Origin: Escherichia phage Rac-SA53
Sequence record: KU052037.1
Length of the DNA stretch: 52,291 nucleotides
Strand: one strand, 5' to 3'
In this document: positions 15,001-18,000 of the stretch, piece by piece
Layout: each line of letters opens with the position of its first letter
Position numbering within the stretch: position 1 is the first letter of the stretch
Program-made: the position numbers

Positions 15001-18000
15001 CGCGATACCGCCAGGACACTGAAAATTGGTATTAACACCGTCATCCGGACTTTAAAAAACTCGCGCCAAAGCGAATAACGTCTTCGCCTATTGCCCATGC
15101 TGATGTGGCGCTTATCTGCGAGCTTGATGAGCAATGGAGCTACGTTGGCAGTAAAGCCCGGCAACACTGGCTCTGGTACGCGTACAACACCAAAACAGGC
15201 GGTGTACTGGCCTACACTTTTGGTCCCCGAACCGATCAAACGTGCCGGGAGCTACTGGCACTGCTTACCCCCTTCAACATCGGCATGCTGACCAGCGATG
15301 ACTGGGGCAGCTATGGCCGGGAGGTGCCGAAGAATAAGCATCTGACCGGCAAAATATTCACCCAACGCATTGAGCGTAATAATCTGACGCTACGCACCCG
15401 CATTAAGCGGTTGGCTCGTAAAACAATCTGCTTCTCACGCTCAGTTGAGATCCACGAAAAAGTGATCGGAGCGTTTATCGAAAAACACATGTTCTACTAA
15501 TTGGATGCACTACCAAACATTTTATCGACATACCAACATGGTTAGCCGTCATTGCTTTTGTTAAAATACACATCCACTTTTCTGTGCAATGCTTAACCAC
15601 TGGTCATATCAAATGGCATTCATGCGAACCATGATATAGAATCATGGCTTGAGAGAGTCGATGAAAGCGCAACTATGGTATGAGAGACATTGATGTAAGA
15701 AAGGCTGTGCATGCCAAGATTCTGAGAGATCATCATAAAGATCCTGACACCCTAATCATTGATGAGTTTACGATGAATCTAGGGGCTAGCAGAGCTGATA
15801 TAGCAGTGATCAATGGGCTTATACATGGTTATGAGTTGAAGAGCAAGAGTGATAACTTGCTCAGATTACCAGCGCAGGTGCAACATTACTCATCAGTGAT
15901 GGATAAAGTAACGTTGGTTGTCTCTGATTGCCATCTTTATGATGCTTTAAGCATAGTTCCATCATGGTGGGGGATAAAGCAAGTTACGCAAGGTGCACGG
16001 CAAGGTATCCATTTAAAAACAATTCGAACTAGCAAGTTGAATCCACAAGTGGACAAACTTTCCTTAACAATGCTTCTTTGGAAAGATGAATTGCTTTCCC
16101 TATTAAGTGATGTAGGGGAGCTACAGAATTTGAAAAATAAACCTAAACGCGTCTTATGGTCAAAACTCGCCAATAGTATGGATGTTGGCGAGCTTCGTGA
16201 AGCTGTTCGAGTTAAACTTAAAGCCCGTAAAGAGTGGCGAGTTGCTCAACAACCTTAGTTATGTGATGGTTTTGCCCAATCCTACGCCATACCTCTGGGC
16301 TACCAAATTTATAGTTACCAGAGGGATTGGCTTTGTAGGCTTGATACTCGTTTGCATAATATTCTATGTCTCTATCTCCCGCACAGAATGTAGGCCCTGA
16401 ATATTCTCGATGAGCAAGAATATCCTCACTATGTTTACCATATTGTTCATAACCAAAGCGATTAGCTACTCTTCCTCGAAATACCCAAAAGTCATTATCT
16501 CCAGAGTATCTGACGCTGGCAGATACGCTAGGGAATCGCGTCGAAAGCCTATTAAAGTCGGGGTGCTGTACTCCATAATCACTATAAATCACATTTCTGG
16601 CAAGTTCTTTTCTATTCATTAAACTCTGCCATAAAATCCACTCGATTCGAGGTTGAGAATATAGACCAACAGAAATATCACTGAGATCTGTAGGAAATGA
16701 ACCCCCAGAAAGAATCACTTTTCTGTATTCATTGAGGTGCGCCAGATTGTTTATCAATCCCATTGCCAAAGTATATAGTTCGCCGGAATTAAGTTTATCC
16801 TCGGTTAACTCATCTCTTAAGTCAATAATTATATCAATATTTGATAAAGGAATTCCCAGATGATTAATGTAATGCGTTATTAATTGTGGATTAACCAGAT
16901 CTAACGTGGTTAATCTCAAGCATATTTCATTCTGCATTAATTCATCAATCGCTCTTTTATAGTTAGATGGGCGAGTTGGTGAACTGACAGGAATAACTCT
17001 TATCCCCATATCTCTAACTTGATTAACCGCATTTATTATAGGGTAATGATCTTCAGGAGAAATAAAATGCTCTTCAATTAATAATCCATCAATATAAACA
17101 CCTTGCATATCTGAGCAAGATTTTGAGACTTTCTTTCCGAACTCTATAAGGGTCTCGTTATAACTCTTTAAGGCAATACCTGAATCAGGGTCAATTGGCA
17201 CTGGTTCAATTTCGAGTAATGGCAAAATTTTTGATTTCTTTTCAATGGATAGCTGCGATAAAGCTGATAACTCAGAACGTTTCGCTTTCAGAATAGGAAT
17301 ATATGAAATTGTCATGTTAATACCTTATACAGAATCAATTAACAATTAATGGTTCTTCGGACATTGAAATTTATATCGCAAAAATTGGCAAACTCTCCTC
17401 GACTACTCACTTGTGGGTATCCTGGCGTAAAAGGAATGACTTGGCAATACCCGGTGTGATCATAAGTCATTGAAAATGATCATTTTTATCAGTCTTTCTT
17501 CCATGATGAATGCTAATGCCATTTGATTTGTTGAGGTGAAAACTGTTAAAAATCAAAACGATGTAATTGAAATGAACGTTCGGTAGCATTCACGCTTTAA
17601 ATGTTTCTTTTGTGCTGATTGGATGAATTTTGGTCACTTATGATGAGAGATGTTGCAGGAAAAGAAGTTGGCATTGATCTATTGGATAGTTAGAATTGCT
17701 GCGGGTGCTTGAGGCTATCTGCCTCAGGCATGAACACCAAAAGGCAGATAGAGAAAAGCCCCAGTTAACATTACGCGTCCGGCAAGACGCTTAACATTAA
17801 TCTGAGGCCAATTTCATGCTAGACACATGTAGGTTAGCCTCTTACGTGCCGAAAGGCAAGGAGAAGCAGGCTATGAAGCAGCAAAAGGCGATGTTAATCG
17901 CCCTGATCGTCATCTGTTTAACCGTCATTGTGACGGCACTGGTAACGAGGAAAGACCTCTGCGAGGTGCGAATCCGAACCGGTCAGACGGAGATCGCTGT

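Follow-up and report, generated by a model that had tools for sequence, protein, structure and literature searches.

A convergent, overlapping beta-cII gene pair in Escherichia phage Rac-SA53 is a candidate core of the Gop-beta-cII and PD-Lambda-2 phage defence systems

Escherichia phage Rac-SA53 (sequence record KU052037.1) was analysed over a stretch of 52,291 nt, hereafter the window, and we describe here two intact open reading frames (ORFs) that face one another within it. The first, at 15680–16258 on the plus strand, encodes a 192-aa cII-like protein of the sce7726 family, and the second, at 16218–17315 on the minus strand, encodes a 365-aa protein of the beta family; RefSeq annotates the pair as ‘sce7726 family protein’ and ‘beta family protein’. 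The 3′ ends of the two ORFs share 41 nt (16218–16258), and the GC content is 0.33–0.42 across the pair, against approximately 0.43–0.57 for the phage genes on the left. An earlier sequence-only reading of this DNA had described two convergent AT-rich genes with a 41-nt 3′ overlap, set between a fresh IS1 insertion and a hok toxin gene, and this description is borne out by the ORFs, the GC profile, an empty IS1 site in strain STEC719 and a match to sok. The comparisons set out below suggest that the pair is a core common to two E. coli defence systems, Gop-beta-cII and PD-Lambda-2.

Over its full length the 192-aa protein falls in NCBIfam family sce7726 (NF033832; E 1.7e-56, 191.1 bits against a cut-off of 70), and it also matches the PADLOC model ‘cll’ (E 2.4e-28) and PHROG 984. 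Its homologues carry Pfam domain PF26915, Phage_P4_cII, and the cII protein of satellite phage P4 is itself named a sce7726-family protein by RefSeq. Alignment of 31 diverse homologues, which take in P4 cII and copies from Gordonia, Mycolicibacterium and Myxococcus phages, shows that E29, R38, D40, E52, K54, D58, R62 and Q66 are invariant. Residues E29, D40 and E52-x-K54 therefore make up a PD-(D/E)xK signature, and the D...(D/E)xK-like motif string picked out by the sequence-only reading holds exactly these four positions, the codons of which lie on the plus strand within 15764–15841 (E29 at 15764–15766, D40 at 15797–15799, E52 at 15833–15835 and K54 at 15839–15841). Structure prediction, which had been proposed as a check for a restriction-endonuclease fold, returned that fold with confidence, with the nuclease core at residues ~1–116; the C-terminal helical region that follows is possibly SAP-like and DNA-binding. 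On its conserved residues and model, we regard the 192-aa protein as a predicted PD-(D/E)xK nuclease with intact active-site residues. Searches of PDB sequences with both proteins of the pair, by sequence and by profile, gave zero relatives. The MmcB-like/DUF1052 PD-(D/E)xK proteins (structure 3dnx, SPO1766) are 19% identical to the 192-aa protein and, unlike it, are not known to be partnered with a TIM-barrel protein.

The 365-aa protein matches Pfam Beta_protein (PF14350) from end to end (E 2.4e-52), which confirms the family membership that had been supposed from its N-terminus. At E≤1e-3 this large family numbers 2439 cluster representatives. Among PADLOC models the best fit is to PD-Lambda-2_C (PDLC03983; E 1.4e-41, residues 4–362), and the P4 ‘beta’ model is matched weakly (2e-4). 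The pair had also been likened to the sce7725/sce7726 pair (NCBIfam NF033831/NF033832), which proved half right: the 192-aa protein belongs clearly to sce7726, whereas its partner, at 12.3 bits, falls short of the sce7725 cut-off of 60, the match being confined to an N-terminal motif of 35 residues (5–39), and belongs to the beta family instead.

Across beta homologues E15, D76, D165, D246 and H351 are invariant, and R134, R223, R240, R269, Y270, D314 and R344 are nearly so. Structure prediction gives a TIM barrel extended by helices at the C-terminus, and the invariant acidic residues sit at the C-terminal ends of the barrel strands. This is where the active site of TIM-barrel enzymes is located. 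Because these residues occupy the usual catalytic face of the barrel, we infer that beta is an enzyme or a ligand-binding protein. The earlier suggestion that it acts as a ‘sensor’ found nothing in its favour; the modelled barrel carries invariant Asp, Glu, His and Arg residues at enzyme active-site positions. Foldseek comparison of the model with the PDB recovered generic TIM barrels alone (TM score ~0.35). One alternative is a pair resembling a restriction-modification (R-M) system, in which beta would modify nucleic acid much as the TGT/DpdA transglycosylases do and cII would cut unmodified DNA; we consider this very unlikely. The likeness of the beta model to those transglycosylases is non-specific only, and a domain search found no methyltransferase domain in the pair.

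The association of the two genes is not peculiar to this phage. Among viral loci (80 contigs encoding a cII relative, plus loci collected earlier), 86 of the 88 that could be tested have a convergent adjacent beta gene, as do 77/78 testable loci from 80 species-representative genomes spanning Proteobacteria, Acidobacteria, Firmicutes, Myxococcota, Patescibacteria, Melainabacteria, Chloroflexi, Nitrospira and others. When beta homologues were picked independently of cII, all three had a convergent cII gene. The co-occurrence across genomes that the sequence-only reading had proposed checking is thus pronounced, and an arrangement repeated at almost all of the homologous loci studied is far from what chance would give. 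Protein distances for cII and beta are also correlated (Mantel r 0.77 over 76 non-redundant pairs, with 0/999 permutations as high), so that beta and cII are inherited together and are co-evolving. Beta diverges more quickly, with a mean identity of 29% against 44% for cII, as expected for the partner that meets phage. The sole clear cII locus lacking beta is that of Xenorhabdus koppenhoeferi (L098/L047, 5591–6810), where the place of beta after cII is taken by a Ser/Thr-kinase-like fragment and a PP2C-like phosphatase on the same strand as cII.

The 3′ overlap is equally regular. At 16218–16258 it encodes cII residues 181–192 on the plus strand, including R183, W186 and R187, and beta residues 353–365 on the minus strand. 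Overlap length varies across loci from 4 to 158 nt (median 50); of the 156 loci with an overlap, 154 have a phase of 2 mod 3. Between the codon for cII W186 and that for beta H351 the distance is exactly 33 nt in 111/164 loci, or in 42/49 lineages at 70% identity, indicating that in almost every lineage the conserved RxxWR tail of cII is encoded opposite the final helix of beta, on the antisense strand. The overlap is therefore ancient and rigid, locked across many phyla. P4 is an outlier: its cII has a long C-terminal extension (~75 aa), and a terminator parts beta from cII where the window genes overlap by 41 nt. In a second enterobacterial lineage of the pair (L049–L086, from E. coli and Klebsiella prophages), cII is ~54% identical and 203–206 aa long, and a 39-nt insertion between the two C-terminal motifs widens their spacing from 33 to 72 nt. 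Folding of the RNA of the overlap region revealed no special structure (z = 0.39) and no bidirectional terminator. A fixed antisense spacing of 33 nt is an unusually rigid gene arrangement, and a regulatory hypothesis, either convergent transcription or a 3′ RNA duplex, can be tested directly.

The link to the gop-beta-cII locus of P4 (Rousset et al. 2022, PMC9122126; ‘gop_beta_cll’ in DefenseFinder/PADLOC), which the sequence-only reading had drawn, proved sound. Both loci encode a beta-family and a sce7726/cII-family protein convergently, both are carried on a temperate mobile element, and P4 cII keeps the catalytic residues found in the cII-like protein of the window. The beta proteins are 23% identical over their full length (E 1.5e-8) and the cII proteins 28% identical (E 5.8e-17). 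The two loci differ in that the P4 gene order is gop(+), beta(+), cII(−), whereas the window pair is without gop, and in that the window pair lies in the nin region of a lambdoid prophage, whereas the P4 system occupies a cos-proximal hotspot. Searching the whole window with P4 Gop (tblastn) yielded a best E of 0.38, and hence no gop. Small ORFs of 40 and 43 aa upstream of beta were considered as gop-like genes and rejected, having no PADLOC hit where the P4 Gop control scored 4.8e-70; transmembrane and coiled-coil proteins near beta in loci L009 and L037 were likewise ruled out as Gop homologues for want of a PADLOC hit. Among the loci examined, Gop was found in P4 only.

The second relative is PD-Lambda-2 (Vassallo et al. 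2022, PMC9519451), to component C of which the window beta is closest. As published, PD-Lambda-2 has a HigB-like component A and a component B with a helix-turn-helix (HTH) and an M78 domain, and no cII, whereas the window pair has cII and neither A nor B. Beside the pair, whether in the window or at IS-free loci, neither a HigB-like A nor an HTH-M78 B was seen; phmmer searches of the loci retrieved for comparison, with HigB and M78 queries, gave matches in other lineages only. In 17/77 species loci an HTH-M78 protein like PD-Lambda-2_B is encoded immediately upstream of beta, co-oriented with it and often overlapping it, and seven of these 17 also have a recognisable HigB. Most loci, the window included, have nothing conserved upstream of beta. 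PADLOC identified PD-Lambda-2 A, B and C at locus L008 (5001–8122), where a convergent cII gene is also present, and the PD-Lambda-2-type loci of environmental bacteria (L008, L173, L174 and L175) all have this convergent cII/sce7726 gene as a fourth gene, overlapping beta by 155–179 nt. The same four-gene layout, with beta followed by a convergent cII, was found for 3/3 M78 homologues sampled blind. A tblastn search of plasmids with the M78 protein showed that HigB-M78 pairs also occur alone, without beta; the equivalent search of phages returned nothing useful, and a further search for M78 homologues gave environmental relatives only. Since the window locus has no gop, HigB or M78 gene and contains the shared parts alone, it appears on sequence comparison to be neither Gop-beta-cII nor PD-Lambda-2 but the core common to both. 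The earlier proposal of an undescribed kind of system does not stand: the pair belongs to a family already described (Gop-beta-cII; PD-Lambda-2 component C), of which it is the core without gop.

Both relatives act against phages. The Gop-beta-cII system confers resistance to lambda and P1, and its gop gene is toxic when beta is absent (PMC9122126); orf184, an accessory gene of a phage, sets off cell death via gop-beta-cII (10.1101/2023.04.06.535777); and PD-Lambda-2 C is needed for defence and dispensable for toxin neutralisation (PMC9519451). Our favoured interpretation, to which we assign a probability of about 0.58, is that the window pair is a prophage-carried accessory module, the two-gene core of the P4 Gop-beta-cII/PD-Lambda-2 family, that would defend the lysogen against other phages. 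The defence role is argued from homology and genomic context, all of the direct evidence being that from relatives.

We next considered whether the pair might instead be an addiction module, similar to a toxin-antitoxin system, that serves to stabilise the prophage and has no part in defence. In that case the cII protein would act as toxin, with the antidote supplied either by beta or by antisense transcription that starts at the beta promoter. Convergent overlapping genes, an adjacent hok/sok locus and carriage on a mobile element are all compatible with such a module, and gop and beta have been read as a toxin-antitoxin pair in P4 (PMC9122126). Against it stand four independent loci (L179, L031, L049 and L136) in which beta is disrupted, by IS1A in L179 and by rearrangement, frameshift or truncation in the others, and the adjacent cII ORF is intact. 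Locus L179 is from a viable E. coli strain, PEC209 (2199–4072), the cII protein of which is identical to that of the window. A cII gene that persists intact beside a broken beta at these four loci is therefore not lethal alone, and the natural knockouts, at least four in number, speak against beta acting solely as the antidote to a nuclease that is constitutively toxic. The PD-Lambda-2 result (PMC9519451) points the same way, as beta is unneeded there against the toxin yet needed for defence, and the relatives do give phage resistance. We therefore judge an addiction module with no defensive function to be unlikely.

Distribution bears on a further alternative, in which the genes would serve the life cycle of the phage itself (lysogeny control, recombination or degradation of host DNA) rather than immunity. 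The whole 2.3-kb segment is present in 93/5426 complete E. coli genomes, always in a variable slot of Rac-like lambdoid prophages between the replication/nin genes and hokD. Carriers include lambdoid prophages of pathogenic E. coli, among them O121 and O103 strains of Shiga toxin-producing E. coli (STEC), and in related prophages other cargo is found around the pair, for example a methyltransferase and a Doc toxin. In other genomes its neighbours belong to mobile elements and to defence (integrases, phage genes, type III methyltransferases, MzaA, IetA and BrxA), a setting that favours the defence reading. In four unrelated lineages a CI/LexA-type HTH-S24 repressor gene lies directly upstream of beta and co-oriented with it (L087, 5740–6447; L105, 6681–7370; L118, 1905–2570; L176, 2164–2937), which suggests that beta is expressed in the lysogen alongside the prophage immunity gene. 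The position of beta after a CI repressor in several lineages would also suit a role in the life cycle, as would the co-orientation of the cII-like gene with the early-right operon, the origin of the name cII in P4 genetics and the annotation of one actinophage copy as ‘exonuclease’. Such a role is nevertheless improbable, because the genes are non-essential in P4 (PMC9122126), their presence in E. coli is sporadic, the slot being filled with different cargo in related prophages, and the pair is also found outside any phage, in chromosomal islands and beside R-M and BREX genes.

Several points weigh against defence by the two genes, and against the parts assigned to them. The two-gene form is known from sequence alone, and the PADLOC models recognise its individual components only. 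Even in P4 a part for cII in defence is presumptive, and an effector role for cII is an assumption, given the four loci that keep an intact cII with a disrupted beta. Only 396 bp beyond beta are included in the PD-Lambda-2 clone as published, so that any cII gene there would be truncated, and that clone still defended. The invariant, acidic and arginine-rich pocket of the modelled beta protein looks enzymatic and would fit a passive sensor poorly. Finally, neither gene has an identified promoter in our promoter scan.

If the pair is nevertheless a defence module, the cII nuclease could be the effector, cutting either the invading DNA or that of the infected cell, and beta may control or license it on a phage cue, being more than an antidote. 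The convergent overlap might couple expression of the two genes through transcriptional interference or through transcripts with complementary 3′ ends. Other lineages would have gained further toxins upstream of beta (Gop, or HigB with the HTH-M78 protease), none of which is found in the window. We hold this mechanism, with a nuclease effector licensed by beta, with less confidence than the defence role itself. A broader and decidedly tentative proposal is that beta-cII is an ancient, self-sufficient immune module with a new kind of mechanism, in which a TIM-barrel enzyme acting on a nucleotide or nucleic-acid substrate would license the PD-(D/E)xK nuclease, and the antisense 3′ overlap would be obligatory and regulate both genes. 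On this view Gop-beta-cII and PD-Lambda-2 would have arisen from it by the addition of toxins, and the published PD-Lambda-2 would be missing its fourth gene.

In the literature we found no description of a two-gene beta-cII system, of a mechanism for beta or cII, or of a link between PD-Lambda-2 and cII. Gop-beta-cII and PD-Lambda-2 are validated E. coli defence systems without a known mechanism that have so far been treated as unrelated toxin-antitoxin-like systems. Our comparisons suggest that one beta-cII core underlies both and also stands alone, in lambdoid prophages and in many phyla. The environmental loci suggest in addition that a cII nuclease was overlooked in PD-Lambda-2, the three-gene definition of which omits it. 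The chief interest of the window locus is that it isolates the apparent shared core of two uncharacterised defence systems, and so offers a simple two-gene model for finding what beta does.

Immediately to the left of the pair, 157 nt upstream of the 192-aa gene, is an IS1-family element (14749–15514) flanked by an intact 8-bp target duplication, AAACATTT, at 14741–14748 and 15515–15522. Strain STEC719 has an empty site at this position and is otherwise 99.9–100% identical. The insertion is therefore recent and intergenic and removed no gene; a third gene destroyed by IS1 is ruled out. InsA and InsB of this element are clearly unlike those of classical IS1A. Other insertion sequence (IS) elements are found nearby in relatives, namely IS3 in O121 strains and IS1A within beta in strain PEC209, and from these varied insertions it appears that the slot attracts IS elements.

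Junction mapping shows that the region upstream of the cII-like gene (15523–15679, plus strand) is untouched by the IS1 insertion. The promoter scan found a single weak promoter-like site there, at 15613–15642, with 9/12 matches. Since promoter and terminator scans of the pair region gave no more sites than expected from shuffled sequence, this site is suggestive at most. On the minus strand the AT-rich region upstream of beta (17316–17700; GC 0.33–0.40) is expected to hold the beta promoter; the scan found no consensus promoter in it.

Directly to the right of the pair is a complete hokD/sok type I toxin-antitoxin locus (17703–18028), in which sok matches Rfam RF01794 at 17703–17878 (122 bits) and the Hok ORF ends at 18028. 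It was this short hok/sok segment, and not the pair, through which 4152 E. coli genomes matched the query. Further along the window, downstream of a Q-like antiterminator, is AT-rich toxin cargo at 20457–20936, then at ~20950–21700 and from 23480 onward, the counterparts of which in STEC719 are annotated as a subtilase-family AB5 toxin binding subunit, an EplA catalytic subunit and an ‘enterotoxin A family protein’.
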